This document shows positions 10,434 to 39,920 of a stretch of DNA of 64,000 nucleotides, piece by piece. The notes under the pieces are model-generated. The model was not told where the DNA came from and did not search any database. It saw nothing but the letters and a program-made list of their open reading frames with translations. The stretch's first letter is position 1, and the number at the start of each line of letters is the position of its first letter. Location: positions 31,912 to 95,911 of the IMG/VR virus record IMGVR_UViG_3300050120_000309; one strand, given 5' to 3'. Both the position numbers and the translations under genes were made by a program. The stretch is from a virus.

Positions 10434-12553
10434 TAGCGGTTGAAGCGTATTCCAGACGCGATGCCATTGAAGGGGGAGACACCAAAGCGCGACATGCCGC
10501 TGTTGGAACCGCCGGAACGGAAGCCACCTGAAGAAGGCAGGCCACGGGAGGGAACTCGACTGCCTGTGGGAGCGGGACGACCTTGTCCGCCCACCATCAT
10601 GGCGCCGCGACCGTTGTGAAGAACACGTCCCTGTTGGGGCTGAGCGGCAGGGAGTCCACGTGCTGGAACTCCACTGCGCCGGGCCATGACTGATTTGGTC
10701 TGCTCCGTCGTATCGGCAGGAGCCGAGCTCGGAAAGGGAGAAGACGGTGCTGCGGGCTGGTATGCGCCTAGACCCCAGCCTGCCACGTGGGCAATCTGAG
10801 CCAAACGTCGTACTGCTTCCTTGGTCCGGAAGAGGCCAAATTCGATCTCGATACCGAGCATGGCGAGCATGAATGCATCGAGGTCGTGGTCACCTGTTTC
10901 GGCATCAGTCTCATAGCTGGCAGGCACTCCATGGGTCGACCAGCTCTTGACGCGGTAGCCCTGCATCTGTGCGATCAGGATCTTGTCATCATCAGCGGAA
11001 AGCTCGACGAGTTCATTCTCGAGAGCGATGACAGTGCCTTCGACCATGAACGGCTTGGTCCGGCGTTTGATATCTTCTTCATCGTCCTTGCGCTTGCGCT
11101 CACCGATCTCACGATTGGGGACGAGCTTGTTGAACTCCAAGGTGCCACCGAAGTCGATGACCTTGAGGTTCTTCATCTTGTACGTCTGCGCGTCGCCTTC
11201 TTTCCCAGCCAACTGGCCTTCGGTACGGAGCAGTTCATCTTGCGCGAAGCCAAAGCCGGCATCAATGTAGATGTGGTCGCACATCCACTTCTTATTGAGT
11301 CGCTTGATCTCGGCGATGGATAGGGCGACGGTAGACTTGGGGTCATCGACGACGCACCGGTCGACGGCCTTGCGCACGCGGGTATTGGTGTCATATTCAA
11401 CGACATATATCCTGGTTCCAGTACCCTTACCATTCCAGTCAATGCCCATGATGTAACGCTTGGTGTTATCCGGCCGCGCGTCGCGGTGGGCATAGAATCT
11501 CTGCGTTTTATCGAGGAAGAACGACTTGAACACGCCGGCCACTGGGTCACCGAACTCGGCAAGAAACTCATGGATGAAGCGATCCATGGTCTTGGCTTCG
11601 AGCATGTAGTTCTCGCGCTTCTCCTCAGACCACTCGGGGTGGTCAGTGATGGGGAAGAAGAACTCTTTGTACTCATCGAACTTCTGACACATCTGGTAGT
11701 ACATGCCACGCAGACCTGTCGGGGTTGACGATCCGTGGAAGGTCAGCTCTTTGAAGCGGCGCAACAGCGGCATCAGCGCGTCGTAGTCATCCTCGTTGAG
11801 ATAGTCCTGTTCATCCAGGCGGATGCGACGGGGGTTCTGACCTCGAGTGGCTCCGCCCTTCTTACCCGAACCTGAACCGGCGGTGAAGATCTTGATGATC
11901 GACCCGTTGTTGAAGCGAAGGAAGTAGTAGGGGGATTGTTTCTGCTGGGCAAGGACACCGGCCAGGCTGGGGGAATTCTCCAGCTGGCTCAGGATCTCCA
12001 TGTACCACATTTCAGCCTGGGTCTGCTGAGGGCAAACGATCATGGTCTCAAGCTTCTTGCGGGTGAGTGCCAGGTGCAGTTCTTCTCCGATACCGGTAGA
12101 GGACTTACCCATACCACGAGCCCATCGGTCGACCTTGCGCGGAGCGGTGCAGCTCAGCGCTTCCTTCTGATACCACCGGAGGGGCATGGGAATGAAGTCG
12201 CCGTCTGCGTTCTTGACGACGATGTTCTTGCCAACCCAATGGGCAGGGTCGTAGATATCCCGGATCTCATCGATCGTCATGTCCTCGCCGAGTTCAGCCA
12301 TCTGGGCCTGCTTCTCGAGGAACATCTGCTCATCGTTGATTCCACGGCACTTGATGTTGAAAGTGCGACCAGGAAACTTTGACTTGTAGTCGATGTGGCA
12401 CTTGCGGCAGATGTCGTTCTGCATCTGGCGCACGATGCCCTTATCGGTGCCGTCGGCGTTCCGATCGCGTGCAATGGTCTTACTCAGAAACTGTTGCTCT
12501 TCGGCAGGCATGCTCGTAAGCAGCTGCTTGAGAGTCACAAAGTTGTCAGGCAT
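10433..12553 (-). CDS. terL: Terminase large subunit
   Basis: WYQKEAL, Walker A RGMGKSS, Walker B IRLDEQD, SSTP coupling motif, nuclease GIDWN and DHDLDA; start moved to ATG 12553 to avoid overlap with the upstream gene. Confidence 0.9.
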   Translation of the reverse strand: MPDNFVTLKQLLTSMPAEEQQFLSKTIARDRNADGTDKGIVRQMQNDICRKCHIDYKSKFPGRTFNIKCRGINDEQMFLEKQAQMAELGEDMTIDEIRDIYDPAHWVGKNIVVKNADGDFIPMPLRWYQKEALSCTAPRKVDRWARGMGKSSTGIGEELHLALTRKKLETMIVCPQQTQAEMWYMEILSQLENSPSLAGVLAQQKQSPYYFLRFNNGSIIKIFTAGSGSGKKGGATRGQNPRRIRLDEQDYLNEDDYDALMPLLRRFKELTFHGSSTPTGLRGMYYQMCQKFDEYKEFFFPITDHPEWSEEKRENYMLEAKTMDRFIHEFLAEFGDPVAGVFKSFFLDKTQRFYAHRDARPDNTKRYIMGIDWNGKGTGTRIYVVEYDTNTRVRKAVDRCVVDDPKSTVALSIAEIKRLNKKWMCDHIYIDAGFGFAQDELLRTEGQLAGKEGDAQTYKMKNLKVIDFGGTLEFNKLVPNREIGERKRKDDEEDIKRRTKPFMVEGTVIALENELVELSADDDKILIAQMQGYRVKSWSTHGVPASYETDAETGDHDLDAFMLAMLGIEIEFGLFRTKEAVRRLAQIAHVAGWGLGAYQPAAPSSPFPSSAPADTTEQTKSVMARRSGVPARGLPAAQPQQGRVLHNGRGAMMVGGQGRPAPTGSRVPSRGLPSSGGFRSGGSNSGMSRFGVSPFNGIASGIRFNR

Positions 12554-12575
12554 AGAGGAGGTGTTCCAGACGTGC

Positions 12576-12977
12576 TTAGTTGAGGCGGAGGATCTTGACG
12601 GTGATGGCGCCAGGGCCAACAATGGCCGAAACAGTCACCTTGATGGCGCGGCCCTTGAGGGAGATCCCGGTTGGCCATTCACCAACTTCAAGGCCACTGG
12701 CATTGAAGATCGTGACGCCGGTGAAGGTCTTGACCGATACGAAGGTTCCGGTACCGTCATCATTGAGGACCTCAATGGTGCAGGACGTGGTTCCATCCGT
12801 GAAGGAGGGAACTACCTCGATCGAATTGGCCTGGGGATTAATGGCAGCCGACGTTGTACCTGCAGTGATTGCTGTTAGCAACGTGGCAGGAGTTGAGTAG
12901 GACGGTGTGAGATCGCCGACGTTCCAGCGAGGGGGAAGGCCCATTGAAGGGTGCGGACTGAGAGGACTACGACCCAT
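12576..12977 (-). CDS. Small beta-rich hypothetical protein, probably virion
   Basis: 133 aa, Thr/Gly rich, AGGAG RBS. Confidence 0.55.
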   Translation of the reverse strand: MGRSPLSPHPSMGLPPRWNVGDLTPSYSTPATLLTAITAGTTSAAINPQANSIEVVPSFTDGTTSCTIEVLNDDGTGTFVSVKTFTGVTIFNASGLEVGEWPTGISLKGRAIKVTVSAIVGPGAITVKILRLN

Positions 12978-12989
12978 GAGGATCTCCTG

Positions 12990-13490
12990 TTATCTGTGAA
13001 GGAAGAGGGCTTCTTGGCCGAGCCACCTGCGAGAAGTGGTCGATGTGCCTGTGAGCTCGATGGCGGCGCGCTGTCTGCGCTGTTGGGAAGTCTTGGTGTC
13101 GATGTAGTCGCCACCGAACCGTAGCTTCTGAGCAAAGCGCCCTTCAGCGGTGAGTTCGGAGAAGCCACGAATCAAGGTGTGCGTGAACTGGTTGGTCGCA
13201 TATCCAACGAGCAAAGTGCCGGCGAGGGCGGCGGCTACGGGAGGCAGGCCGAAAGTCGCGGTGAGCCCGGCGGCTGCAATTCCACCAAGAACCGGTTGAA
13301 CTGCCAGTGAAACGGACTGAGCTGCCAGTGTGGGGATCAGTTCCCCGCGTTTGGCAGAGGCCACTTCCATAGCAAGGATAGGAAGACCCCAGTACGCGCC
13401 TTCTGAAGCAAACTTGTGTCCCTTCCAATAGGAGTTCTTGATCTCCCTGGAGAAGGTGATGGGTTCATCTCTGGGTGTTAGCCATGCCAT
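12990..13490 (-). CDS. Hydrophobic putative virion/ejection protein
   Basis: Central Gly/Ala hydrophobic helices; C-terminus ...RQRA...LGQEALFLHR. Confidence 0.55.
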   Translation of the reverse strand: MAWLTPRDEPITFSREIKNSYWKGHKFASEGAYWGLPILAMEVASAKRGELIPTLAAQSVSLAVQPVLGGIAAAGLTATFGLPPVAAALAGTLLVGYATNQFTHTLIRGFSELTAEGRFAQKLRFGGDYIDTKTSQQRRQRAAIELTGTSTTSRRWLGQEALFLHR

Positions 13491-13493
13491 TTA

Positions 13494-14300
13494 CTACCTC
13501 GCTTTGTGAAGACCGAACACGAGGTCACCGCCGGCGCCGATGCGCCCCATGCGGTCTCTCACTCCTGAATCGGAGAATCCGTTGTCTTCGGGAGCAGCTC
13601 GGTCAACTCGTTCGGGATCGCCGTTGCCGTGAAGCACTTTGATGGCCCCACCGATGACGGCCGAAGCGGCGACGATGGCGCCGAGACGGGTACCGCCTCC
13701 CCATTTGCCCCATACCTCACTGGCTTTGAAGGCGCGGCCGGCTGCAATACCGACTCCAGTGCCGACGGCGGCGGCTACGACGGTGCCGGCAGTGCTTCCA
13801 TCAGTGGTTCTGTGGCCGACGTAGCCTCCGACGAGAGCACCAAGACCGCCAGAGATCGATGGCCGCTGCAGCGCGGTCTTCCATCCGCCAGGAGACCGGA
13901 TCTCATCAAAGAGACCTTTGCCGTAATCGCGGATCGCGGAAGAGGTGTCTGCTGCGTATTTCGGAGCAGCTTTGGAGAAGTCTTTGCTGAACTGGGCAGC
14001 GCCGTATCCAACTTCTTCGTTGTAGGCTCCTCGGTATCCGTCGGCTCGAGCGCGTTGGCGCGCCATGACAGACCCTACCGCGGCAGCGCCACCCGCAGTG
14101 AGAAGGCCTGCTGTCCCATATTGAAGAGCTGAAGTGGCTCCGGCATCAGCTCGAGTACCGGCACTTCCTTCGGTGGTTGCATACGTCTCAGCTCCGGCGA
14201 ACAGACCAGCGCCGGCAGCGAATACGGCTGCTCCCCCAGTGAGGGGATTTGCCCACAATCGTGAGGTAAAGTTCCCCGCTACTGAGTCAATGAAGGCCAT
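13494..14300 (-). CDS. Glycine-zipper protein
   Basis: Several GxxxG hydrophobic segments; C-terminus GAGGDLVFGLHKAR. Confidence 0.6.
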   Translation of the reverse strand: MAFIDSVAGNFTSRLWANPLTGGAAVFAAGAGLFAGAETYATTEGSAGTRADAGATSALQYGTAGLLTAGGAAAVGSVMARQRARADGYRGAYNEEVGYGAAQFSKDFSKAAPKYAADTSSAIRDYGKGLFDEIRSPGGWKTALQRPSISGGLGALVGGYVGHRTTDGSTAGTVVAAAVGTGVGIAAGRAFKASEVWGKWGGGTRLGAIVAASAVIGGAIKVLHGNGDPERVDRAAPEDNGFSDSGVRDRMGRIGAGGDLVFGLHKAR

Positions 14301-14306
14301 AGAGTA

Positions 14307-14636
14307 TTAGCGAAGCATTCGGACGGCACCACTACTGAGTGCTTTCTGCGCGCCCCAACGTCGGTACCCTCTCATCCCTGCCATTCCCGCGGCGCCCATA
14401 GCAGCTCCACCGATGGCACCTCGCAGATGATTGTCACGATCGGAGACACCTCCAACGACAGCTCCGCCTCCAGCTACGAGGGCTGTGGCGTTGACGAGTC
14501 CCCGGTTGGTTTTGTAGTCATTGGCGACGCCCCGGGCGACGGCCTTTGCTCGCTGCGCGCCTGGTGAGTTGTAGAACTTGCCGGCACGGCTGGCAGTGGA
14601 ACGAAACCCGTTGATGGCGCTGCTGAAGATGCTCAT
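14307..14636 (-). CDS. Glycine-zipper protein
   Basis: AGGGAVVGG and GAIGGAAMGAAG segments; N-terminus MSIFSSAINGF. Confidence 0.6.
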   Translation of the reverse strand: MSIFSSAINGFRSTASRAGKFYNSPGAQRAKAVARGVANDYKTNRGLVNATALVAGGGAVVGGVSDRDNHLRGAIGGAAMGAAGMAGMRGYRRWGAQKALSSGAVRMLR

Positions 14637-14645
14637 GAAAGTCCT

Positions 14646-14882
14646 TTAGTAAGAAGCCTGTTGTGCTTGAGACCGGAGCTTGGCTGAGGATTTGCCGTAG
14701 AGACCTCGCGCTACGAGGCCGCCAGGTACGCCGCCTATGAGTCCCCACTTCTTATGCCCCTGGGGAGCAGATAGATAGCCTGCACCCAGACCAATCCCTA
14801 GACCCGCTCCTTGAGTGACGGCGAACTGCTGGCCTCGAGATAGACCTTTGAAGCCGTTGACAGCTCGACCGAAGATGCTCAT
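14646..14882 (-). CDS. Glycine-zipper protein
   Basis: GAGLGIGLGAG and GLIGGVPGG segments; N-terminus MSIFGRAVNGF. Confidence 0.6.
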   Translation of the reverse strand: MSIFGRAVNGFKGLSRGQQFAVTQGAGLGIGLGAGYLSAPQGHKKWGLIGGVPGGLVARGLYGKSSAKLRSQAQQASY

Positions 14883-14915: not shown

Positions 14916-14932
14916 CCTGGCTAGTATAGGAA
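14916..14932 (-). promoter_or_regulatory. Putative late promoter TTCCTATACTAGCCAGG
   Basis: Intergenic copy of the 17-bp motif, 33 nt upstream of the 14882 start. Confidence 0.7.
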
Positions 14933-19042: not shown

Positions 19043-19059
19043 CCTGACTAGTATAGGAA
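19043..19059 (-). promoter_or_regulatory. Putative late promoter TTCCTATACTAGTCAGG
   Basis: Third copy of the 17-bp motif, 5 nt before ATG 19037. Confidence 0.65.
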
Positions 19060-21384: not shown

Positions 21385-21450
21385 AGATGCAGCTTTGCCC
21401 AGAAGGACTCATGAGCCAAAGCTATATAGTGCGAAAACTTGGACGGGTCT

Positions 21451-21651
21451 TTATGCGGAATCATCCACCAGAGTTGTTGTGATCTGATTCTCGCTGGAGA
21501 GCAAACTGGTACCCCGACATGCCTGAATGTATAGAGGCTTCTCATAGGCAAACGTGTTCGCCTTGAAGAGATGGGCCACGCCCTCCGCAATCTCGGAAGC
21601 AGAGACCAGGCCTTTCGTCTCGATCATGAATTCAACGTGAACAGATGACAT
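21451..21651 (-). CDS. Hypothetical protein
   Basis: 66 aa, AAGG RBS. Confidence 0.45.
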   Translation of the reverse strand: MSSVHVEFMIETKGLVSASEIAEGVAHLFKANTFAYEKPLYIQACRGTSLLSSENQITTTLVDDSA

Positions 21652-21759
21652 GAGCGACCTTCCGTGCTGCGGCTGCCGGCGGTGACTTGGGTTCCGTAGT
21701 TGGGCGCCAAGTGCTGCGTGGAGTCTTAGTGACGCGAATGAAGGATCGGCAGTTGGCCA

Positions 21760-22122
21760 TTACTGAACTACCTCGCCTGTTTTGAGATTCGTCGTTCCTT
21801 CGATAAAGGGCCAGTCCTCGAACTTCTCCAGAAGTGCCCAGGAGATCTCAGAGATTGCTACCCACCAAGGCGCCTGTGGGGCCGAGAAGTCACAGATGAT
21901 GCCATGCTCGTCGGTATAGGATCCGCCAGCAAAGGTCTGACGGGTCTTTTCATGGACAGCTTTGATTGCTCCCTGCATCTCGAAGAGCTCGCCGTTACGG
22001 ACCAGAACGCTATCAGAGGTGACGAGCCTGAAGGTGGCAAGATCCTTCACTTCGCCGGGGATGAAGTTGCTAACGACACGAGGGGCAGACTTCACTTTGC
22101 CCTGGACGACGAAGCGGGCCAT
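21760..22122 (-). CDS. Hypothetical protein
   Basis: ORF with plausible starts at 22122 or 22161; CTTTGGCTC motif upstream at 22190-22198. Confidence 0.55.
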   Translation of the reverse strand: MARFVVQGKVKSAPRVVSNFIPGEVKDLATFRLVTSDSVLVRNGELFEMQGAIKAVHEKTRQTFAGGSYTDEHGIICDFSAPQAPWWVAISEISWALLEKFEDWPFIEGTTNLKTGEVVQ

Positions 22123-22249
22123 GAAATAGCCCGAGGTTTCGAGATTGATGAGTTCTGACATGAGTTGAATATGAACTGCATGTCCGTAGGAGCCAAAGAC
22201 AACGCCCACCTTTATCAGATGGGCGTTGTCAGAGACTACTGATGGTTCG

Positions 22250-22978
22250 TTATGCCGCGACCCGCTCCGGTGAGTTGGAGAACAGTGTGGTCCAGGCTGC
22301 CGCCATCTTGATGCCAGACCCGATGCTGTAGATGATGGTCCGTGAGGCGTCAGCATCAGCTAGGTGGTCGGCATAGTCGGTGATCTCCGTGGCCAGTTCT
22401 TCAAGGCCAACAAGGAAGCCTTCCTCGGTCAGGTTTGGGACCTGGTCGACGAACGCAAGGATCATGTCTTCGACATCATCGAAGGACTCTTCGAGTTCAC
22501 TCTCGATAAGGGAGAGATTTTCCTGTTCATCCTCAGTGACTGCGCCACACGCAATGCCCAGGATGACGTCCGCGAGAGCATCGGACAGCGTGTCGTCACT
22601 CAGCTCATCGTTGAAGCCGAAGTCGGTTCCAAGGGCCTCAGCACGAACCTGCGCGCCATGCACAGGACAGTCGACGTTGTCGCAGTACTCCTCGCCGGCC
22701 CCACCTTGTGCCTGCAGAAGATCCTCTGATGCTGTTCCGGGATCAGTCTCGATAAGAAGGCGCTCGGGGTTGTTGGTCAAGAGCAAGGCCGCGCCGTTGG
22801 GCGGGTAGGAGAAGATGCCAGTCTCCAGGGTCTCACCGATCGTTCCGTCGATCTCTCCAGCCTCTACAGACTCGATGACCGGGATCAGTGCTTTGAGCAG
22901 CTCAAAGGTGGAAGGGGACTTGTAGTTCTGGATCAGGATCTGGGTTCCCGACTCAAGTGCAAATGTGATTGACGCCAT
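22250..22978 (-). CDS. Highly acidic hypothetical protein
   Basis: 242 aa, very Asp/Glu rich, CxxxxCxxH site; GGAGG RBS. Confidence 0.7.
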   Translation of the reverse strand: MASITFALESGTQILIQNYKSPSTFELLKALIPVIESVEAGEIDGTIGETLETGIFSYPPNGAALLLTNNPERLLIETDPGTASEDLLQAQGGAGEEYCDNVDCPVHGAQVRAEALGTDFGFNDELSDDTLSDALADVILGIACGAVTEDEQENLSLIESELEESFDDVEDMILAFVDQVPNLTEEGFLVGLEELATEITDYADHLADADASRTIIYSIGSGIKMAAAWTTLFSNSPERVAA

Positions 22979-23020
22979 AGGTGTTGCCTCCGACTACGAG
23001 ATTGCCGTTTGGTGGGGTTC

Positions 23021-23029
23021 GAGCCAAAG
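23021..23029 (-). promoter_or_regulatory. CTTTGGCTC promoter-like box (representative minus-strand copy)
   Basis: Exact minus-strand copies at 55-63, 21413-21421, 22190-22198, 23021-23029, 24436-24444, 25326-25334 and 26263-26271; variant at 19818-19826; each lies upstream of a gene start. Confidence 0.75.
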
Positions 23030-23172
23030 CTAAGAGCCAAGACCCTTCAGGAACTGGCCCGGTGTGCGCGGCGAACCTCTATGAATCAACTTACGGATCG
23101 TTCGTATGCGAAGCCATCCGGTGATCCCCTGACGTGTGCATAGGGAAAGCAGCCAGAGACGGAACCGGATCG

Positions 23173-23793
23173 TCACAGCCGTTCCTGGAAAGTGACCTGC
23201 TGCTCCAGCATGCCGAGGGCGGTATGAGTGGCACGAGAAAGGACATTGCTCCCTGTAACCCCACAGGCGATATATTTGAGTCCCTTGTTACGGGCCTCCG
23301 TCTTGGCTTGGGTGTACATCTGCCGGTAGAGGCCTCGGCGCCGATGATCTGGATGAGTCCAGACGGTGCCGATCCACGCAGCGTTACCTTCGACCCACTG
23401 AAACCAGACCAGGATCGCTACGGTGACTCCCAGGTGTTGGATGTAGACAACGTGATCCCAAGAACGCGCAAAGAAGGTCTCACCAGTTCCTTCGCTGACA
23501 TGCTCGGCCCCAATCTCGCGGGAGGCGGCATGTGCGATGGCCATCAATTCGCCATCGCCTATTTCATCGAGGCTTAGGGCGCCACTGTAGTCACTGGGGA
23601 TCTCTTGAGGGAGGAACATGGCAGATAGGTTCTCGAGGAGGTTCTCATCGTCCAAGGTAATGAACGACGTGGTGCTGAAACGCAGGTTGAGGACACCAGA
23701 CTCTTCACCTCGGTTCACACCGATCTGAAGTTCAGTCATTGGTCCAAAAGGGGAGGGAACAGGAAGCTTTGCGTCCAGAAGCGTGAAGAGCAA
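23173..23793 (-). CDS. GNAT-family acetyltransferase
   Basis: VWTHPDHRRRGLY acetyl-CoA binding motif A; N..S....ALG motif B. Confidence 0.75.
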   Translation of the reverse strand: MLFTLLDAKLPVPSPFGPMTELQIGVNRGEESGVLNLRFSTTSFITLDDENLLENLSAMFLPQEIPSDYSGALSLDEIGDGELMAIAHAASREIGAEHVSEGTGETFFARSWDHVVYIQHLGVTVAILVWFQWVEGNAAWIGTVWTHPDHRRRGLYRQMYTQAKTEARNKGLKYIACGVTGSNVLSRATHTALGMLEQQVTFQERL

Positions 23794-23796
23794 TAG

Positions 23797-24177
23797 CTAC
23801 TCCAGGGAGGGGATGATTTCGAGGTAGGAAGCGAGACGTCCGCCGCCGCACATGAGTCCGGGTGTTTCGACTTCAGGGTCGTGGATGATTCCAGCCCAGT
23901 TCAATGCCCAGTGGCCGGCAAACGGCTGGCCCTTGGTGTGGAACAGGATGTGCAGCAAAGCGTAGTCAGGTGGTTTGCCCACACCGCGCCAGCGCTGCAA
24001 TCCTTTGCCTTTGACCTCAATGTTCAGAGAATCAAGTGCAGAAACGAGCTCCCAGGTCTTGGTGCCATGGTTGTGTCCGAACAGTTCGATCGACTCCTCG
24101 ACGGAGATGCCGGCTGCCATTGCAACAACGGTCTGACCACAGACCCGGGAGTTCTTTGGTTGTACGAGATGAATCAT
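23797..24177 (-). CDS. Papain-fold C39-like cysteine peptidase
   Basis: Q-x6-CG...GHW...IHDP catalytic pattern. Confidence 0.65.
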   Translation of the reverse strand: MIHLVQPKNSRVCGQTVVAMAAGISVEESIELFGHNHGTKTWELVSALDSLNIEVKGKGLQRWRGVGKPPDYALLHILFHTKGQPFAGHWALNWAGIIHDPEVETPGLMCGGGRLASYLEIIPSLE

Positions 24178-24407
24178 TAGGCGAGGTTGAACGTGATCGT
24201 GTCGCCCTTTTTCATCTGGAACATGGGGACAGAGTCGGGAGGAAGATCGAACCAGATAGCGGCGAGGCCGCGCTGGCCGGTGCTTGAGACGTAGGGTACG
24301 GAGAGCTTGGAGTAGGTGGCGGTCTTCGGTGGGTTGGAGAAAGGCTGATCACGACGTTCGATTTCGGCGGTCGGGGTGTCGGTGGCTGTGAAAGTGACGG
24401 ACTTCAT
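24177..24407 (-). CDS. Hypothetical protein
   Basis: 76 aa, stop/start coupled to the next gene. Confidence 0.5.
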   Translation of the reverse strand: MKSVTFTATDTPTAEIERRDQPFSNPPKTATYSKLSVPYVSSTGQRGLAAIWFDLPPDSVPMFQMKKGDTITFNLA

Positions 24408-24410
24408 GAA

Positions 24411-24683
24411 CTAGAGTCTGCCCGGCCTGGGACCCGAGCCAAAGTGATAGTCCAACGAAGTCTCGCCTTCCGGATCAACGATCTGTTCGATCTTGAAATA
24501 GAGCTGAATGACAACCATCCAAACGTGCCGGTACGCACGCCACAGACGAGGCCACCAGTGCGTCGGAAGCTCCCCGGCACGCAGCTCAGCTACATTCCTT
24601 TCGTACGGATAGGCAACGCCCAAATCGGAGATGTACTGGAGGTGTTCGCTACGGTCTGACATGGCTACCCTCCTCGGCGCCAA
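24411..24683 (-). CDS. Small hypothetical protein, paralog of 24649-24870
   Basis: Shares the LxxGxLPTHxWxRxW motif. Confidence 0.55.
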   Translation of the reverse strand: MAPRRVAMSDRSEHLQYISDLGVAYPYERNVAELRAGELPTHWWPRLWRAYRHVWMVVIQLYFKIEQIVDPEGETSLDYHFGSGPRPGRL

Positions 24684-24870
24684 GCTCCATGATCTGGGCC
24701 ATCTTCAGCCAGAAGCGATACCAGAGATGAGTCGGCAGCTTACCTTCCGCCAAGACCCTCCGGTTGTCCTTGAAGCGATAGGAGAGACCGATCCGGAGCA
24801 TCCGGTCGGTGTGCATCTCGAGCTGCTCTTCTGGGGTCAATGCTGGTGCGAAGTGAAATGGGAAGGTCAT
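24649..24870 (-). CDS. Small hypothetical protein, paralog of 24411-24683
   Basis: LAEGKLPTHLWYRFW motif. Confidence 0.55.
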   Translation of the reverse strand: MTFPFHFAPALTPEEQLEMHTDRMLRIGLSYRFKDNRRVLAEGKLPTHLWYRFWLKMAQIMELGAEEGSHVRP

Positions 24871-25076
24871 GAGATCTCGAAGATGATACGATCGCCGGCT
24901 TTGAGACCGAGAGGTGTGAGGAAGATGCCAGGTGTAGCGAACTTCATGTGGACGGTGCCTGAGATCCGAGAGTCTTCCTGAGTGAAAGCAACCTGCATCT
25001 CAGGGAACTCGCCATTCTCGTTGATAGTGACATCGAGGGAGGGATCAGCAAGGACCTGCAGAACGAGACGCTTCAT
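24867..25076 (-). CDS. Hypothetical protein
   Basis: 69 aa with overlapping start/stop junctions. Confidence 0.5.
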   Translation of the reverse strand: MKRLVLQVLADPSLDVTINENGEFPEMQVAFTQEDSRISGTVHMKFATPGIFLTPLGLKAGDRIIFEIS

Positions 25077-25297
25077 TAGCCCCAGCTGTGTTCAGAGATG
25101 GTGTATTGAGACTCTCGAAAAAGGACGAAGGCCAGATTTGCGGCATCTATCCGTCGAGCAAAGCGCAGTGGTTTGTTCGGATCCGTTGTCCACTCGTAGA
25201 TGGTGTGGAGGTCGTTGTATGGTGCGATACCTAGCCACTCAGGCATTGGTCCTGTCGGCGCCTTCTCAATGAGCCAACCTGTTTCTATGGGTTCCAT
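25076..25297 (-). CDS. Hypothetical protein
   Basis: 73 aa, GAGGG RBS, CTTTGGCTC motif upstream. Confidence 0.55.
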   Translation of the reverse strand: MEPIETGWLIEKAPTGPMPEWLGIAPYNDLHTIYEWTTDPNKPLRFARRIDAANLAFVLFRESQYTISEHSWG

Positions 25298-26024
25298 GCC
25301 CTCGACCCTATAGGGCCAGACGGGGGAGCCAAAGGTTACCGAGCAGGATCATCCTGGTGTAACTGAGCACTCTCTTTGCCGAATGCCCCGTACGGGAACA
25401 TGTACAGGTTTGGTCAGATAATCGACACATTTATCTGACATGTTGAAGAAACATACATGTCGGAAGAACCGGCAACATCTTGCCTCTTATCCCGTAGAAG
25501 CCCGTTTATCGGCAACATTGTGCCTGATAAAGCCAAGTCCCACCATCATGTCGTACTGCCTCTGAGAGACGACGATCGCCGGCGGCTCATGGGAGTAGGG
25601 AACAGGAAGAAGCAGCTCTCTGAGGTCATTGAGCTGGAGAGCCCCGGTGTTCTTGGTGTACTCAGGATCTGACGATTTCATTACCGACTCACCTGATCTA
25701 CAGGCGGCCCAATGTTCTCTATATAAGAGCAGAACCCGTCACCCATTACCAGGGCTGCGTCTTTCGGAATAGAACCAGAGACATCTATGGATATGGAGAA
25801 GGGGAATGCCTTGACGGGTAGTTTCTTACTCTGTTTCCGAGATGCAAATTCCAACCAGTCCACAAAGGATTGGTTCGCTCCATCATTGAGGATCTCAGTC
25901 CCCAGATCGAAATCTCTCAGATCGATCGGCCGGTCAATCTCTGTGCTGTAGATCGTCCAACTAGCTTTCTTGGCAGCTGCCATGGATGTTCCTATCTGTA
26001 TGGGGAGTTTGAGCGGTCGGCCTA

Positions 26025-26297
26025 TTACTTGATGACCCCATTCATCTTGAGTACAGCCTGGAGGTTCTCTATACCAACGGCGACCCGGAAGATCGCAGGG
26101 GTGAGTGCTTCGATTGCCAGCATGATCAGAACCAGGCAGGTCGTTACCGACCAGTGCGCGTGAAGAGCCACCTGGAAGAGCAGAGCTCCTGTGATAATCC
26201 ACCGAATACCACGGATGAGGTGTGCCTTCGTCATTCCTGCAGCGTAGTGGCTCAGAAGGGCTGAGCCAAAGGCGCCGTCACGCGAACCGGAAATCAC
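26025..26297 (-). CDS. Small membrane protein
   Basis: Two hydrophobic helices; true start may be ATG 26234. Confidence 0.45.
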   Translation of the reverse strand: MISGSRDGAFGSALLSHYAAGMTKAHLIRGIRWIITGALLFQVALHAHWSVTTCLVLIMLAIEALTPAIFRVAVGIENLQAVLKMNGVIK

Positions 26298-26685
26298 TTT
26301 TATATATGCAGGGGCGGAGTAAGTGTCTTGATTCTCAGGTTCTTGGCAATGACAGCATGCTCAGGTTCATTGGGATCAAAGACAAGGACATGTACCGCCT
26401 GCTCTCCAGCAACCCATCCCAGATTCTTCATCATATGGAGCAAGTCTATGACATCGTCAGAAGATAGGGACCAGTCGAGCTGGCCCTGATCGTCCGTGCC
26501 TGTGGTGATCCCGAAGACCGGTAGAGCTGGGGGGTGTTGTGAGGTGCGGTGCCCTGGATCCGTGTTGGCTCTCGGGTCGTTGTCAAAGATGACTGTGGCG
26601 TTGTCGATGGCTTCGTTGAATGACATACTCATGGCGCCCATAGTAAGCGGCGCACTACTGCCAGCCAAACTCACTTTTATATATG
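26294..26685. repeat. 15-bp direct repeat TCACTTTTATATATG
   Basis: Exact copies at 26294-26308 and 26671-26685. Confidence 0.75.
26300..26674 (-). CDS. Hypothetical protein, first gene of the minus arm
   Basis: 124-aa ORF bracketed by a 15-bp direct repeat. Confidence 0.5.
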   Translation of the reverse strand: MSLAGSSAPLTMGAMSMSFNEAIDNATVIFDNDPRANTDPGHRTSQHPPALPVFGITTGTDDQGQLDWSLSSDDVIDLLHMMKNLGWVAGEQAVHVLVFDPNEPEHAVIAKNLRIKTLTPPLHI

Positions 26686-26864
26686 TGGAGAATGCTCCGC
26701 ACTGATCGCAGATTGGTGCTCGGAAAACGCTTTGCCAATGGGGATACCAGGGTAATAAGGGTTACCCGATATGGACACTAATCGTTTCGAGCCCACCCCG
26801 GGTGAACCAGGGGTACTGATGTCCACACATCAGCATAACCGTAACACTTACAAGGAGATACACA

Positions 26865-27428
26865 ATGGATACTCATAAGTTCGCAGACGTCGTCGCATCA
26901 GAACTCGGTCTACCCAAATACAAGGTAGTCGTTCAACGTGAGCTCGAGGGAATCAACGCAATGGTTGTTCCTGTAGTCAACGAGATCTGGCTCAGCCAGC
27001 AGATGGTTGAGGAACTCACCAACGAAGAGATCTGTGCAGTCATCACGCATGAGCTTGCTCATCCCTATCACTCGCATCTAGCTAAGCGCAACGCAGTGTC
27101 AGCAGGTCAGTTCATCCTGTCAGGCATCAATCTGTTCCTGCCATTGCCTATCTGGAAGAAAGTAGTCATCGAGCTCGGCATGTCGACGGTCGCTGCGATC
27201 GCCAAGCACAAGATGTTCTGTGCTCAAGAGTATGAAGCAGACGAAATGTCCTTCCGCTATCACCTGCAGGGATCACTGGTCTCTGCATTGAACAAGATCG
27301 AAGCATCAGCACAAGAGCTTCAGAAGAAGTCGGGTCAACCACAGTGGATGCTGGCATTGGGTAGCTTGACTCACCCCAAGACAGCCGATCGTATCGCTCG
27401 TCTCAGTGTGCCCGTGATCAATCGCTAA
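26865..27428 (+). CDS. M48-family (HtpX-like) zinc metalloprotease
   Basis: INA, HELAH, QEYEAD and THP....RI motifs; AAGGAG RBS. Confidence 0.85.
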   Translation: MDTHKFADVVASELGLPKYKVVVQRELEGINAMVVPVVNEIWLSQQMVEELTNEEICAVITHELAHPYHSHLAKRNAVSAGQFILSGINLFLPLPIWKKVVIELGMSTVAAIAKHKMFCAQEYEADEMSFRYHLQGSLVSALNKIEASAQELQKKSGQPQWMLALGSLTHPKTADRIARLSVPVINR

Positions 27429-27462
27429 TAGCCCTATACCTCAGATTCACAAGGAGAATCAC

Positions 27463-27675
27463 ATGGAATTCATCAAGAAGTACACGTCGTATCTCCCGGA
27501 TATGCCCTCAACCTCTGAGGTCATCAAGCACATGGATAGCTACCTGCTCGATAAGAGCAAGGCGGTTACCGAGTTTCTCGATGAACACCCTGGTATCGCT
27601 ATCCTGCTCAGCCCTACAAGTATCACGCGTCGCGCAGCACAGAAGCATGTCGACAACATGCTGCACCAGAAGTAG
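27463..27675 (+). CDS. Hypothetical protein
   Basis: 70 aa, AAGGAG RBS. Confidence 0.65.
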   Translation: MEFIKKYTSYLPDMPSTSEVIKHMDSYLLDKSKAVTEFLDEHPGIAILLSPTSITRRAAQKHVDNMLHQK

Positions 27676-27763
27676 CAATGTTCCACGTGGAACTCACTGG
27701 TCACCCAATTGGGTGGCCTTCGCTGTTTATGGACACATAACCCATGCAATAGGAGAAATCACA

Positions 27764-27877
27764 ATGTTCAGCTACGAAGTAAAAGGCATGTCCCCTCAGG
27801 TATTCGTCTCCCTCATCCTCACCGGTATGTTCATCGCCACGATCGCTATTGGTCTTGGTTTCCGCTACGCAGCGTAG
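27764..27877 (+). CDS. Small single-TM protein
   Basis: 37 aa, AGGAG RBS, one hydrophobic helix. Confidence 0.55.
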   Translation: MFSYEVKGMSPQVFVSLILTGMFIATIAIGLGFRYAA

Positions 27878-27918
27878 TCGTAGTTTCACGGACCATAACC
27901 CAGATCAAGGAGATCATC

Positions 27919-28047
27919 ATGCACGTATTACTCGCCAAAGTAATCGCTACTGTCCTCGTATCTATCGCAACACTCACTTACATAGCGTACGTGTCTTACA
28001 GGCCAAAGAATGCAGGTCCTGTAACTGATTACAAGCACTGGCTTTAG
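27919..28047 (+). CDS. Small single-TM protein
   Basis: 42 aa, AAGGAG RBS, one hydrophobic helix. Confidence 0.55.
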   Translation: MHVLLAKVIATVLVSIATLTYIAYVSYRPKNAGPVTDYKHWL

Positions 28048-28060
28048 TGGTCGGACATTA

Positions 28061-28085
28061 GCCCTCAGAGATGAGGGCCTTTGTC
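28061..28085 (+). terminator. Hairpin/terminator
   Basis: GCCCTCA-GAGA-TGAGGGC followed by CTTTGT. Confidence 0.55.
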
Positions 28086-28117
28086 TGCCCATTGGGGTAG
28101 AGACAGAAAGGAGAAGT

Positions 28118-28564
28118 ATGAAATCTGTCGAGGAACGATTCTGGTCCAAAGTCATCAAGCAGCCTAACGGGTGCTGGATATGGACTGGAGGAGTAAACGC
28201 AATCCATGGCTATGGCAGGTTCTGTCATAGCTCAACTGAAGAGAAGGCACATCGATATAGCTATCGCTTGGCTAAAGGAGAGATACCGGAAGGTCTCAAT
28301 CTCCTGCATTCCTGCGATGTCAGAAGATGTGTAAACCCTGACCATTTGAAACCTGGTTCACAGTTGGAAAACGTCCAGGACTGTGAGTCCAAAGATCGAT
28401 TCAATCACCCACAAGGTGAGAGTCATGGCAGCGCAAAGCTGACTGCAGCTCAAGTTGAAGAGATTAGAGGTCTTGCAGGCAAAATGCCCCACTCAGCAAT
28501 AGCGGCAAAGTTCGGTATGAGTAGATCTCATGTCGGCAATATCTGTCGTGGCGCCAAGTGGTAG
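28118..28564 (+). CDS. HNH homing endonuclease
   Basis: RFWSKV..CWIWTG..YGRF..AHR..LHSCD..CVNPDHL; C-terminal AKLT...HTH. Confidence 0.9.
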   Translation: MKSVEERFWSKVIKQPNGCWIWTGGVNAIHGYGRFCHSSTEEKAHRYSYRLAKGEIPEGLNLLHSCDVRRCVNPDHLKPGSQLENVQDCESKDRFNHPQGESHGSAKLTAAQVEEIRGLAGKMPHSAIAAKFGMSRSHVGNICRGAKW

Positions 28565-28663
28565 ATGTACCTGCGGTGCAAGCCCATAAGCACCGTATGT
28601 GCCAGAGACGTGGTCCAAACACGTCTCTGGCTTACTTCAACTACCAGATCAAGGAGAATGATC

Positions 28664-31453
28664 ATGTCCAACAATACCAAGAAGACCCTCGCCCTCGTCA
28701 AGGAAATGGAACTGAAGCCCCGCGTTCGTGTCCCCTACGTCGCAGGTGTTCACAGCCACTTCCACGCCCCAACCATGTTCCACAGCACCTGGGAAACGTC
28801 GAACTTCTTCGACATGTTCCTCCCAGAGGGTGTGAACTATGTTGAGGTGTCTGTACTCGGCCGTACTGAGGATGAACTGGATGCCAACACATCCTGGTTC
28901 GACCACATCGGACGGGAAGGTCTCAAGATCCAAGGTGTTACGCACCGTGTGATCTTCGGTGACTGGGATGACGACGGAGTTGCCATCATGGTGCCGGCGG
29001 ACGCAGTGAAGGGACTTCAAGACCTCGGTCTATCCCTCCAAATCAATGGACCCGCAGATAAGGCTAAGGTACGCAAGTACTTCCGTCGTATCCGCGCGCA
29101 CCACGAATGGGCCATCTCGGGCGCAATCGTTGCCACCAAACAGGTGGAGAATGGTGAGGTACTGACCGTTGCTCCGGATAGCCAGTCGGACATCCGGTTC
29201 GATATGCTCCATGTCGACCTCAAGGGCATGGACCCAATCAACGTAGCACTCGCTGATGGTGTACACCTCATCGATGTCAACCTGTGCCATACCATTGGCC
29301 TGGCCTACGGCATCGATAAGCTCACCAACGTCAAAGTGGGTGATGCGTTCAAGGGAACAGCACTCTCAGGTCTCGGCCTGGGTAAGGGCTTCTTCCATGT
29401 CGTTGAGAACGCAACCTATGGAATCGTCCTGTATGGAGCGAAGAAGCAAGTCACGTTCAGTGAGTTCTTCCTCGGCTCACTCGGAGATGTCAAGGGTGCT
29501 GATGTGGCCTATTCGGACCTTCAGTCAACCATCAACTTCGACTATCACCAGGGCGAAATGCTCTATAACCAGTCCGTCCTGTTCATGCAGGAAGTCATGG
29601 AGGCAATCCACAACGAAGACAAGATGCGCCACGTGTTCCTGACACACATGGCTCCGATCTCCGAGATCCTCAGCAATGAGGAAGATGGCGGTCGTGAGTC
29701 CTGGGTACTGCTCGAAGCACTCCGCAAGGGTGTTCCGGTCAGCGCGCAGGGACCAATGAATCCCGGCCTGTTCCGCAGGGTGGTGCGTCATCTGTTCACA
29801 CACGTGCTCGATGCAACCAAGGGACGTGTTCCCTTGACTGGTATCGTGGGACGTTTCAACCTCATGCCTGACCTCAACTGCTTTCTCGAAGATGGATCTG
29901 TGGACTATCGTCTCAGCTCTATCCCAGCAGAAGCTGTGGTCTGCATGGATCTCGATCAGGGCCCATTGGCCATGTATCGTCAGCCCTCGGGACACAAGAA
30001 GGAGCTGGTCAGCACGAACAATGTGCATGACCGTCGCTTCAAGAAGTTCCGTGGTCAGAACCGTATCATCCTCGGTGCAGATGCACTAGAGTATCTCGCC
30101 ATCATGGGTGGTGGAGATATGGACGATGCGGTCAATGCAACCGTCAACCTGTCCTGGGTGGAGACAATGGCAACTGGGTCATACCCGTTGACTGCACTCC
30201 CCGCGGCACAGAGCACCAAGGCACTCGACGCAGACAACAAGTATCGTCGTGGTCCTGCCTATCCCCGTCAATGGTCGATGATCGACTTCTTCGAAGCAGT
30301 TGCTGCTTCCAAGGAGAAGGCATCCATGTCCATTGGTGTCGTCGTCAACGCAATCATGCTGGATGAACTCCTGTCCGGCGTGCATAAGGAGAACATGCTT
30401 ACCGATATCGCCGATCGCATCGTTGATGCCAAGGATGAGTCGGAGAAGCATGACCTCCGTGTCGCCTATGACTGGCTCCGCAACCGTGAGGATCGTATCC
30501 TCCGTGTCGTGGCTTCCAATCTGGAGGCATTCATCGATCAGAGCAAGACTGGTGCAGGTGATGCTGCTGTATTGGCATCATTCACCGCTCTCATCAACGA
30601 GGTCCGTAACAACAGCATGGTGATCCCCTCGTCGTTCATGATCAAGAACAACAAGGGCCGTGAGCGTGTGCCAGCTAAGCGTCTCATGGATATGGACTTC
30701 ATCACAGCGCCCTCGCTCGTCTGCGAGACGCTCAACCGTATCAAGTTCGAAGCCGATCAGATGCAGGAGGCTCTGGTCGAGGAGCAGTGGCTCAACGTGG
30801 ACAGCATTCCTGACTCGTTGGACGCAGCATTCCCACGCAGCAAAGCACACCGTGAGGAGGCATTCGAGCTCCGTATGGCATGGGGTGAGGCATTTCAATC
30901 CCAGCCCAATGCAGACCTGGCGATTCGCTATAAGAACGCCATAGATAACGTGGTCAAACCAGCCTTCTTGAACAAGGAATTGTTCGAAGAGGACAAGGTT
31001 CAGATCGCAGTGGAGCATGCTCGTCTCACCTACCGTGGTCGCAAGACTCAGGCAGAGCGTGGCGAGAATGGTCGGTTCCGGAACTACCCTGATGGGCTGC
31101 TCTGGACCAACACCATCGGTCTGTACTACATCAAGGCGCTCGAAGAGGCTGGACTTACCGGTCTGTATGTACCGGTTCAGTTCGATCGCTGGAGCCGCAA
31201 CCTCAGCCGTGGTGCATTTGATGTCCGGGTCGTAGCCGGCATCGTTCTGCGCGCGGAAGATGACATGATGCTCGGAACCACGTTCAATGTCCTCGATGAA
31301 GTAGAGGATGGTATCTATCCCATGATCGATGGCATGATCACCGTCCAGGCACCTGCAGCTGAACTGCGGGCGCCTCGCAACATCGTCAATGAGTCGTTCG
31401 ACAACCCCATGGAGCTGGACTTCGATCTTGATGAAGTCTTTGCCCGTGGCTAG
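28664..31453 (+). CDS. Single-subunit two-barrel RNA polymerase (YonO/QDE-1-like) with DxDD catalytic loop
   Basis: Ordered motifs LADGVHLI, GLGKGFFHV, KK, YRQP, MGGGDMDD, SIGVVVN and AFIDQSKTG parallel the DG, KG, K, RxP, GGDxDGD, LG.I.N and AVDxxKTG motifs of cellular RdRP-family polymerases; AAGGAG RBS before ATG 28664. Confidence 0.75.
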   Translation: MSNNTKKTLALVKEMELKPRVRVPYVAGVHSHFHAPTMFHSTWETSNFFDMFLPEGVNYVEVSVLGRTEDELDANTSWFDHIGREGLKIQGVTHRVIFGDWDDDGVAIMVPADAVKGLQDLGLSLQINGPADKAKVRKYFRRIRAHHEWAISGAIVATKQVENGEVLTVAPDSQSDIRFDMLHVDLKGMDPINVALADGVHLIDVNLCHTIGLAYGIDKLTNVKVGDAFKGTALSGLGLGKGFFHVVENATYGIVLYGAKKQVTFSEFFLGSLGDVKGADVAYSDLQSTINFDYHQGEMLYNQSVLFMQEVMEAIHNEDKMRHVFLTHMAPISEILSNEEDGGRESWVLLEALRKGVPVSAQGPMNPGLFRRVVRHLFTHVLDATKGRVPLTGIVGRFNLMPDLNCFLEDGSVDYRLSSIPAEAVVCMDLDQGPLAMYRQPSGHKKELVSTNNVHDRRFKKFRGQNRIILGADALEYLAIMGGGDMDDAVNATVNLSWVETMATGSYPLTALPAAQSTKALDADNKYRRGPAYPRQWSMIDFFEAVAASKEKASMSIGVVVNAIMLDELLSGVHKENMLTDIADRIVDAKDESEKHDLRVAYDWLRNREDRILRVVASNLEAFIDQSKTGAGDAAVLASFTALINEVRNNSMVIPSSFMIKNNKGRERVPAKRLMDMDFITAPSLVCETLNRIKFEADQMQEALVEEQWLNVDSIPDSLDAAFPRSKAHREEAFELRMAWGEAFQSQPNADLAIRYKNAIDNVVKPAFLNKELFEEDKVQIAVEHARLTYRGRKTQAERGENGRFRNYPDGLLWTNTIGLYYIKALEEAGLTGLYVPVQFDRWSRNLSRGAFDVRVVAGIVLRAEDDMMLGTTFNVLDEVEDGIYPMIDGMITVQAPAAELRAPRNIVNESFDNPMELDFDLDEVFARG

Positions 31454-31810
31454 CACCGCAACCTGTGCGGTGAATAGAAGCCTTATTCACCGCATGGGCA
31501 ACCCAACGGACCGGGTTGAATGCCTCATATGCTGCGCTTATGACCCATAAAGGGCCTATATGCCTCGTATATGAGTCATTCACGCCGGCCTGAGTGGATA
31601 TACCACCAGACTTACCGGATGTTCTGATCCACACCAATACGGGGCCAGTGAAGTCGCCCTGGATGTCGTATTGAATGGAAATAGAGCACATGACACCACA
31701 CCCTGCCCGCTAACGCGCGCATCTGGTCGTGGCCTCCTAGCTGGTGAAGCCCGTGAAACGGAAGTAAGGGTAGTGGAAGTGAGAACTAAACACTTCTCCT
31801 GATTAGCGCT
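31454..31810 (+). ncRNA. Candidate structured RNA element downstream of the polymerase gene
   Basis: About 400 nt without a credible ORF, containing at least six consecutive stems (see findings). Confidence 0.5.
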
Positions 31811-31849
31811 CACACCCCACCCCAATACCTTCAACACAGGAGATTTCAC

Positions 31850-32080
31850 ATGAAAGCTGCCTTCGACATCACATTCGTTGACGTGCGCCTGCCCAATAAG
31901 CAGAAGCGCCAGCACTTAGTCCTTCGGGCCGACAACCAGAAGCAAGCACGGGAGCTATTCGGCTCACAGAAGGGCTCTGACTTCAAGGCTCTGTCTGTCG
32001 ATGAGGTATTGGCTACGGTCAGCCCTGCATCGCTGGAAATGCTCACCACTCGGTTCAAGGACCATCGAATCGCAGCCTAG
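31850..32080 (+). CDS. Hypothetical protein
   Basis: 76 aa, AGGAG RBS. Confidence 0.65.
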   Translation: MKAAFDITFVDVRLPNKQKRQHLVLRADNQKQARELFGSQKGSDFKALSVDEVLATVSPASLEMLTTRFKDHRIAA

Positions 32081-32178
32081 TACATCCCTCAGAGGAGGGT
32101 CGTAGAGCTCCACAGAGCGGCCCTCTTTCTGACGCCTAAATACCATGTATCCACAAGATCTTGTATGGGAGATTCATC

Positions 32179-32568
32179 ATGACCGGTTCAGGTACTGCTG
32201 TTACACGCCTTTGGTCTCACGCGGCATCATGCCCACACTGCAACGCCAATCTGATCCAGTCAGAGATCCCACAGGCTGATCGCCACAACTATCTCCCCAT
32301 GGTGAAGGATGAAACCACTGGCAGATTCGTCGATGGATCGGATGATGGCAGGAAACTGTACTTCTACCGGATCATTGGGATGAGCAGCATGCTGTTCGAC
32401 CGGGTGCTGGCATGGTCCTGCCCTGACTGCAAGGTCACAGACGTGATCCCGGGCATGGAAGCCAAGTGGGCAGAAGAACAGGCCTATTGGGCTGAGCGTG
32501 GGGCTGCTGCGGCTCGCCGTATGCAGGACGCTACCAACAAGGCTATCGATCGAGCATCTGCGGCCTGA
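32179..32568 (+). CDS. Zn-finger hypothetical protein
   Basis: CPHC...CPDC; GGGAG RBS. Confidence 0.65.
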   Translation: MTGSGTAVTRLWSHAASCPHCNANLIQSEIPQADRHNYLPMVKDETTGRFVDGSDDGRKLYFYRIIGMSSMLFDRVLAWSCPDCKVTDVIPGMEAKWAEEQAYWAERGAAAARRMQDATNKAIDRASAA

Positions 32569-32738
32569 ACCTGCCCTCGCGCGTGCGTGAGATGTGATTT
32601 GGTGTGTGGGAGGTGAGGCACCTAGTCTAATCATCACCTTCGGTCCTCTAATTCCCATACCACCTCACCAAAGCCTTCCATATCTATGACTTCTCATAGA
32701 TCAACGCTTCGCTCACCACATACTCAGAGGAGATCTAT

Positions 32739-32924
32739 ATGCCTGAGAAGGACCGCATGGTCCCTGCTACCGCTGCATGTACTGAGGACAAGTTTGCCTT
32801 CAAGGATACTGTCCTTCAGTTCCCATGGCCTGACGCTGCTGTATGGCTTACGGTCAATCGAGGTCTTAGCCTGAATGGGGCGATTTCATACCTTACAGAG
32901 TTGGAAGCTGAAGCATTCAGCTAG
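32739..32924 (+). CDS. Hypothetical protein
   Basis: 61 aa, GAGGAG RBS. Confidence 0.55.
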   Translation: MPEKDRMVPATAACTEDKFAFKDTVLQFPWPDAAVWLTVNRGLSLNGAISYLTELEAEAFS

Positions 32925-32929
32925 GAGAG

Positions 32930-33232
32930 ATGATGTCTGATAGCTATGAGAAACCCTTCAAGCTTTCACCTCTTCCAATGAATGCTGACTACACTCGGAT
33001 TGAGCAGAGGTTGATTGCTCATTATGTCACTATGTTGGGTAGTCTCATGGGACCTGCTCACAAGTGGATCTATGATCGCTGTGGGTTCTATATCATTCAG
33101 GGCACAGTGTTTACCGCGCCGAATGCTGATGAGCCCATGACCTTTCATATCCCAACTGGTCGAGAGATCGCTCTCTACAACATGCTTCTGATCTGCTATG
33201 AACAGTCAGATGCTCGTTTGATCAAGTTCTGA
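32930..33232 (+). CDS. Hypothetical protein
   Basis: 100 aa, AGGAG RBS. Confidence 0.55.
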   Translation: MMSDSYEKPFKLSPLPMNADYTRIEQRLIAHYVTMLGSLMGPAHKWIYDRCGFYIIQGTVFTAPNADEPMTFHIPTGREIALYNMLLICYEQSDARLIKF

Positions 33233-39662: not shown

Positions 39663-39920
39663 ATGAACGATACGCCACAAGCCCGACATGAACGTGATGT
39701 ACGTGCAGCTATCCTATTGATAATGCAAGGTTTTACGAACTTTGACTTCACCGCAACAGCGCATCCTTGGATCAGACTAAGTATGGTATGGTGGGCCGGC
39801 GCTAACCTTCGAGACATTTCTCATGACGTTATTTATGAAGCTTTGGATCGTTGTTACATCTGCCTTGGCTATACAGACCAAGTTGATCCTTTGCAAGCTT
39901 TGGCTCCAACTGCCCCATAG
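39663..39920 (+). CDS. Hypothetical protein, possible distant paralog of 39381-39650
   Basis: Similar pattern VR.AI......DF.A...V.EA..R....LG...D. Confidence 0.5.
   Translation: MNDTPQARHERDVRAAILLIMQGFTNFDFTATAHPWIRLSMVWWAGANLRDISHDVIYEALDRCYICLGYTDQVDPLQALAPTAP
39898..39906 (+). promoter_or_regulatory. CTTTGGCTC promoter-like box
   Basis: Exact copy; CAATCT lies 17 nt after TTGGCT; gene start at 39954. Confidence 0.7.

Follow-up and report, generated by a model that had tools for sequence, protein, structure and literature searches.

A stop-free open reading frame (ORF) at positions 28664–31453 (plus strand) of the window, i.e., the 64,000-nucleotide stretch of the IMG/VR record IMGVR_UViG_3300050120_000309 analyzed here, very likely encodes an active two-barrel polymerase of an uncultured peat-soil phage. 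For this protein we infer catalysis, a DNA template, timing, and a promoter class, and consider it probable that it is a non-virion DNA-dependent RNA polymerase transcribing phage genes. The main point of interest is the chemistry of its catalytic loop, a predicted metal site, in which the three aspartates are arranged as DxDD; the same arrangement is found in all retrieved homologs spanning this region. The polymerase family is uncharacterized and known from metagenomes only.

The first, sequence-only reading of this DNA described an ORF of about 930 residues with six motifs in the order typical for the polymerases of the RNA interference (RNAi) pathway, and translation bears this out: the ORF has 929 residues, and all six motifs are present with unchanged order and coordinates. 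The codons of the loop are GGT GGT GGA GAT ATG GAC GAT (30107–30127), so that GAT ATG GAC GAT was read correctly at 30116–30127, with the frame intact. The features of the gene, all on the plus strand, are as follows.

28664–31453, plus strand: coding sequence of the predicted 929-amino-acid single-subunit two-barrel polymerase (P0001), based on the open frame, the AlphaFold2 model, and fold matches
Residues 196–203, plus strand: LADGVHLI, from the translation
Residues 238–246, plus strand: GLGKGFFHV, from the translation
29201–29503 (approximate), plus strand: first barrel (beta/Rpb2-like, corresponding to DPBB1, the first double-psi beta-barrel of QDE-1), residues ~180–280, strand-rich in the model
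29831–30163, plus strand: second barrel (beta'/Rpb1-like, corresponding to QDE-1 DPBB2), residues ~390–500, with the R439-Q-P441 "Pro-gate" and the metal loop
29978–29986, plus strand: R439-Q440-P441, equivalent of Rpb1 R446/P448 and QDE-1 R962/P964, aligned by HMMER to "ARSP" of QDE-1
30107–30127, plus strand: catalytic loop G482-G-G-D485-M-D487-D488 (GGGDMDD), with DxDD at 30116–30127
30329–30349, plus strand: SIGVVVN (residues 556–562, including G558 and N562), where the long helix following the second barrel begins (bridge-helix region)
Residues 622–630, plus strand: AFIDQSKTG, with I624-D625-Q-S-K628-T-G at 30533–30553

The fold was predicted with AlphaFold2 from an alignment of 72 sequences with templates switched off. 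The resulting model has a mean predicted local distance difference test score (pLDDT) of 91.3 and a predicted template modeling score (pTM) of 0.88; loop 481–488 sits between helix 474–480 and strand 489–493, and the mean pLDDT of these blocks is 95–97. Double-psi beta-barrels, on which the sequence-only reading had staked its claim, are present in the predicted structure. The Foldseek comparison with PDB retrieved the eukaryotic RNAi polymerases QDE-1 (E 2.6e-16, template modeling score about 0.5) and RDR2 (E 4.9e-14), both over more than 900 alignment columns, followed by the phage enzymes P74-26 gp62 (E 1.3e-4) and the virion RNA polymerase of phi14:2, a crAss-like phage (E 2.1e-3). The top six rows of an independent VIA-align search were occupied by RDR2, QDE-1, gp62, P23-45 gp96 in two crystal forms, and phi14:2. 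The first-barrel segment falls within the full-length structural alignments to QDE-1 and RDR2. The best-matching predicted viral structures belong to proteins of uncultured Caudovirales, two of them automatically annotated as RNA-dependent RNA polymerases (RdRPs). We also observe a C-terminal beta-rich domain (31163–31450, plus strand; residues ~834–929, strands in 834–895), which lies outside most of the structural alignments to QDE-1 and RDR2.

At the sequence level, the similarity to QDE-1 is recovered by the family profile, which matches it in PDB at E 4.5e-4, placing yRQP on ARSP and GGgDmD.Da on GGDYDgDMA, whereas DG and KG are aligned weakly, in domain 1 of the match. HMMER puts a single gap at the glycine of DYDGD in QDE-1, in agreement with the initial description of the loop as one residue shorter than DxDGD. 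The Pfam RdRP family PF05183 is matched by seven out of 49 relatives at E ≤ 0.1 (best E 1.5e-10), with P0044 and P0064 scoring 22.7 and 23.3 bits against the gathering cut-off of 23.8. The query has no match to PF05183, nor to any other Pfam family at E ≤ 1 or to PHROG; nine of the most divergent family members have no Pfam match either, and the single-sequence search of the query against PDB gave nothing meaningful. No match among 50,697 GenBank phage records was found by tblastn for the query or its divergent relatives P0039, P0063, and P0045, and thus YonO was not matched by the query in these records, which include SPbeta. The comparison of the family profile with SPbeta YonO by hhalign gave a very weak match (probability 27%, E 6.7e-4, 232 columns). 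Hence, of the original assignment to QDE-1/YonO-type two-barrel polymerases, the type itself stands, given the fold, the motif order, and the family-wide conservation, while the placement has to be refined: in both sequence and fold, the protein is closer to QDE-1 and RDR2 than to YonO. Judging from sequence comparison, the family seems to be at least as near to the eukaryotic RdRPs as to any characterized phage enzyme.

Each of the known relatives differs from the query in several respects. QDE-1 (Neurospora/Thielavia; PDB 2J7N, 5FSW, 7Y7P-T) and RDR2 (7W82, 7W84, 7EU1, 7ROZ), members of PF05183 with about 12% identity, are eukaryotic and have the DxDGD loop, whereas the query comes from a phage of bacteria, has DxDD, and probably uses a DNA template. 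The phage proteins P23-45 gp64 (non-virion), P74-26 gp62 (8F5M), and P23-45 gp96 (virion, 8H2M) have DxDxD (PMC10770324), are about 600 amino acids long, do not have the N-terminal slab-like region, and show no detectable sequence similarity. YonO of SPbeta, a phage single-chain DNA-dependent RNA polymerase of the same superfamily (PMC5467207), is aligned by hhalign at RxP, the Asp loop, and the IG..N helix, but its loop is DNDGD; a solved YonO structure was absent from the fold matches. Finally, phi14:2 gp66 (6VR4) is a virion-packaged protein of 2180 residues with a DFDxD motif (10.1101/2020.03.07.982082). Alternatively, one could suppose an RNA-dependent or dual-template enzyme similar to QDE-1 and RDR2, producing double-stranded or antisense RNA from phage or host transcripts for regulation or counter-defence. 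We consider this unlikely. A precedent for the DNA-dependent reading is offered by the characterized phage relatives YonO, P23-45 gp64 and gp96, and phi14:2 gp66, which are DNA-dependent RNA polymerases (PMC5467207, PMC10770324).

The family proved to be large. When 1.84 billion representatives were scanned in full with HMMER, 119 clusters were obtained at E ≤ 0.001, including 62 at E ≤ 1e-30, and a word-index search gave 28 relatives; the profile word-search produced no relatives outside the close clade and none carrying DxDGD. Every retrieved sequence spanning the loop reads G-G/N-x-D-x-D-D, so that homologs with DxDGD, whose existence would have spoken for an error or an inactivated copy, were not encountered (111 out of 111 have DxDD). 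In the family alignment of 111 sequences, whose identity to the query varies between 68% and about 20%, P441, D485, D487, and D488 are the sole invariant columns, each 111/111, and no inserted columns are seen at 482–489 in any of the sequences. Other positions of the motifs follow closely: R439 (109/111), K241 (107/107), G199 (106/106), K260 (104/107), D625 and isoleucine or valine at 624 (108/108 each), G558 (108/109), and N562 (106/109). Less strict are D198 (95 Asp and seven Glu out of 106), K230 (Lys or Arg in 74 out of 106), and K628 (just 47 out of 111). Since the six motifs comprise the most conserved columns of the alignment, they are not due to chance, and since the loop length and its aspartates are the same in all 111 sequences, DxDD is fixed in the family and kept by purifying selection.

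This bears on the possibility that the protein is a catalytically dead relic with a structural or nucleic-acid-binding role, or that DxDD arose through faulty sequencing or assembly. The loop does deviate from the DxDxD spacing described as invariant (PMC2919709) for all two-barrel RNA polymerases, bacterial beta' and RNAi RdRPs included. However, the DxDD loop of constant length recurs in 111 independent sequences from many metagenomes, R439, P441, K241, K260, and D625 show the same degree of conservation at an overall identity of about 20%, as expected for a functional active site, and the frame is intact. An assembly error or a decaying copy was therefore rejected, and the relic in general seems highly improbable.

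The roles of the conserved residues may be deduced from QDE-1. In that enzyme, cation A is bound by D1007, D1009, and D1011, and cation B by D1007 and D1009, with D709 helping via a water molecule; phosphates are held by R738, K743, and K767, R962 forms hydrogen bonds with the 2'-OH of both the nucleoside triphosphate (NTP) and the 3' end, and the trigger-loop subdomain bonds the 3'-OH and gamma-phosphate through D1116 and K1119 (PMC9508822). Candidate counterparts of the QDE-1 catalytic residues are D485/D487/D488, D198, K230/K241/K260, R439-P441, and D625/K628. Among these, D198, K230, K241, and K260 appear to correspond to D709, R738, K743, and K767, respectively, by motif order, and I624-D625-Q-S-K628-T-G is likely equivalent, again by motif order, to V1115-D1116-x-x-K1119 of the trigger loop. 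The first barrel (residues ~180–280) holds D198-G199, K230, K241-G242, and K260, that is, by motif order, the aspartate and two basic residues expected in the beta-like barrel of the superfamily (Rpb2 D837, K979, K987). The R-x-P motif, expected some 35–45 residues ahead of the Asp loop, is separated from it by 44 residues (P441 to D485). The DxDxD signature of the beta'-like barrel is altered: all three aspartates are present, with the third shifted by one position. At SIGVVVN the model has a helix (557–569), to which "IGEYSNN" of YonO is aligned.

Taken together, these correspondences outline a single-chain nucleotide polymerase built overall like QDE-1 and RDR2, with a putative active site between the two barrels. 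The first barrel would contribute D198 and, for binding the product and NTP phosphates, the basic residues K230, K241, and K260; the second one would provide the R439-x-P441 gate touching ribose 2'-OH groups and the carboxylates D485, D487, and D488 holding the catalytic Mg2+ ions, with the third carboxylate placed directly after the second, as the glycine of DxDGD is missing. The polymerase of this double-stranded DNA, myovirus-like phage would be expressed from the plus-strand arm of the genome and would transcribe from phage-specific promoters independently of the host RNA polymerase. Ribonucleotide substrates are favored by the conservation of R439 and D625, whose QDE-1 counterparts contact the 2'-OH and 3'-OH of NTP.

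The latter observation also makes us give hardly any credence to a two-barrel enzyme synthesizing DNA or primers for replication in the manner of archaeal PolD, with the short loop as part of a changed sugar specificity: the catalytic loop is indeed altered, PolD demonstrates that a two-barrel core can evolve DNA synthesis (PMC7708050), and no DNA polymerase of family A or B (PF00476, PF00136) was found in the 96-kb (95,911-bp) record, but with the record complete to about 45% only, the missing DNA polymerase means little and its absence is not claimed, the counterparts of R439 and D625 in QDE-1 touch ribose hydroxyls and favor an RNA-like sugar pucker, and the strong fold matches are all RNA polymerases. 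PolD DP2 was absent from the top 50 rows in both VIA-align searches, which is no evidence that the folds differ.

The transcription signals of the window are consistent with phage-specific transcription. On both strands of region 26000–33000, we found no sigma-70-like sites, compared to 5.9 ± 2.6 in shuffled sequences. Two short boxes recur exactly, located as follows.

55–63 and 21413–26271, minus strand: exact copies of CTTTGGCTC, seven copies in all
39898 (39898–39906), 48795, and 61286, plus strand: exact matches to CTTTGGCTC
6374–6385, 14921–14932, and 19048–19059, minus strand: copies of TTCCTATACTAG, with three more copies upstream of the window

The ten exact copies of CTTTGGCTC in the window, versus 0.57 expected, are always on the local coding strand and ahead of genes, and the box recurs in related contigs, e.g., in L006, where it precedes the ortholog of the gene at 39954 at about the same distance (48 versus 49 nt). 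In all, the box has the look of a phage-specific promoter. The six exact copies of TTCCTATACTAG in the genome are all on the minus strand, each ahead of structural gene blocks, and most are followed by nCAGG, which makes this box a candidate late promoter. Neither CTTTGGCTC nor TTCCTATACTAG occurs within 26.3–39.9 kb, the region of the polymerase gene. The lack of sigma-70 sites, both boxes, and the hairpins flanking the gene (see below) fit phage-specific transcription, while the pairing of enzymes with signals is not fixed by them.

Several points weigh against the identification of the protein as a DNA-dependent RNA polymerase transcribing phage genes. Catalysis with DxDD is unproven, because DxDxD has been called invariant and each aspartate of the loop is essential in QDE-1 and YonO (PMC9508822, PMC5467207). 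The fold leaves the template unfixed, because the closest solved structures are RNA-dependent (RDR2) or dual (QDE-1). The query itself lacks a Pfam match, neither of the two boxes can be assigned to the polymerase, and the record is a fragment (CheckV completeness 45%). Taking all this into account, we still regard a non-virion, DNA-dependent RNA polymerase as the probable function.

The likely start of the polymerase is ATG 28664, as evidenced by the spacing of the Shine-Dalgarno sequence and by homologs starting at the equivalent residue. The longest frame opens at ATG 28565, right behind the stop of the upstream gene, and the alternative start ATG 28658, used in the 931-amino-acid database form (P0002), is merely 1 nt past AAGGAG. 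The elements flanking the gene are listed below.

28118–28564, plus strand: HNH_3 homing-endonuclease ORF (Pfam E 7.3e-8), directly upstream of the polymerase gene
28601–28631, plus strand: perfect 12-bp hairpin with a 7-nt loop, from the repeat search, 33 nt 5' of the polymerase start codon
28651–28656, plus strand: Shine-Dalgarno sequence AAGGAG, read directly, 7 nt ahead of ATG 28664
31466–31494, plus strand: perfect 11-bp hairpin with a 7-nt loop, from the repeat search, 13 nt 3' of the polymerase stop codon

About 350 nt after the polymerase stop codon are free of coding sequence. No Rfam families or tRNAs were found in the window.

Minus-strand genes extend up to ~26.7 kb, and plus-strand genes start from 26,865; in the plus-strand arm, the polymerase ORF comes fifth or sixth, counting from the divergent junction at ~26.7–26.9 kb. 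The gene had been placed near the start of an early arm; its location near the start of the plus-strand arm holds, whereas "early" is a conjecture. The position of the polymerase gene is retained in related metagenome contigs, where a small upstream ORF (27463–27675) and several downstream ORFs are syntenic. The HNH_3 ORF was not found in the related loci, the conserved small ORF being much closer to the polymerase there, and is probably a mobile insertion. The relatives come from peat and soil metagenomes and from two contigs of Acidobacteriota metagenome-assembled genomes (MAGs), one of them labeled Terracidiphilus; the protein-atlas neighbors are mostly labeled Acidobacteriota as well.

The linear IMG/VR record (95,911 bp) encodes the portal, large terminase, tail sheath, and baseplate wedge proteins, as well as DNA ligase and thymidylate synthase. 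With the completeness given above, the genome may be about 200 kb in size, and the phage, a jumbo phage; contigs with relatives are up to 159 kb long. PF00940 was not found in the record, and as its control matched nowhere, its absence is not claimed. Among other genes of the window, adjoining PRPP (phosphoribosyl pyrophosphate)-synthetase-like and NAPRTase-family genes (Pfam E 4.9e-34) occupy 58092–60654 (plus strand), a pair that suggests phage NAD+ salvage, and a gene of an RlaP-family nucleotidyltransferase begins at 63302.

Pairs of a virion and a non-virion RNA polymerase occur in P23-45, phiKZ, and AR9. The genome described here contains a candidate for the virion member, a 1665-amino-acid ORF (P0160; genome positions 9700–14697, minus strand, outside the window), one of three consecutive giant genes next to the tail genes. 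It has a beta-like motif KFNVGSQKG and a beta'-like REP, followed by DMDGD 36 residues further on, i.e., a canonical loop. The model of its residues 700–1400 is poor (pLDDT 58.5), and the best 50 Foldseek rows for this low-confidence model are almost all beta'/Rpb1-type largest subunits (E ~1e-4, template modeling score ~0.16). Of its seven homologs, one resides on a contig of 141,917 bp, and a contig of equal size bears a DxDD polymerase with 64% identity. P0160 was not found in the Acidobacteriota MAG holding the L033 locus or in the 46-kb record of the L003 locus, both of which are incomplete or fragments. A pair of virion and non-virion polymerases similar to that of P23-45 (PMC10770324) is plausible.

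What does the DxDD loop mean for two-barrel polymerases in general? At least 119 clusters with three strongly conserved aspartates at a different spacing call the DxDxD rule into question: either a rebuilt loop is compatible with the catalytic metal site, or the DxDD enzymes work differently. In the literature searched around YonO, QDE-1, and two-barrel enzymes, we found just DxDxD and DxDGD descriptions, and no paper pairing DxDD with double-psi. Tentatively, and with considerable doubt, the DxDD clade might be viewed as a large, ancient branch of phage two-barrel enzymes with an altered metal geometry, in which the second and third carboxylates would be adjacent without a glycine hinge, and as the closest relative of eukaryotic RNAi RdRPs among viruses of prokaryotes. 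If this is true, the "universal" DxDxD rule does not reflect a chemical need of the fold, and the lineage of phages ancestral to enzymes of the QDE-1 and RDR type is open to direct study; the changed loop might, in addition, confer some new property, e.g., another metal preference, a different template range, or independence from primers. A full-length, QDE-1-like, phage-borne family bears on the proposal that the eukaryotic RNAi polymerases descend from phages, and may serve as a source of compact new RNA polymerases for biochemistry. With regard to the phages themselves, the family identifies large soil phages, probably of Acidobacteriota, as a group likely to have host-independent transcription with short, exact promoter-like boxes.

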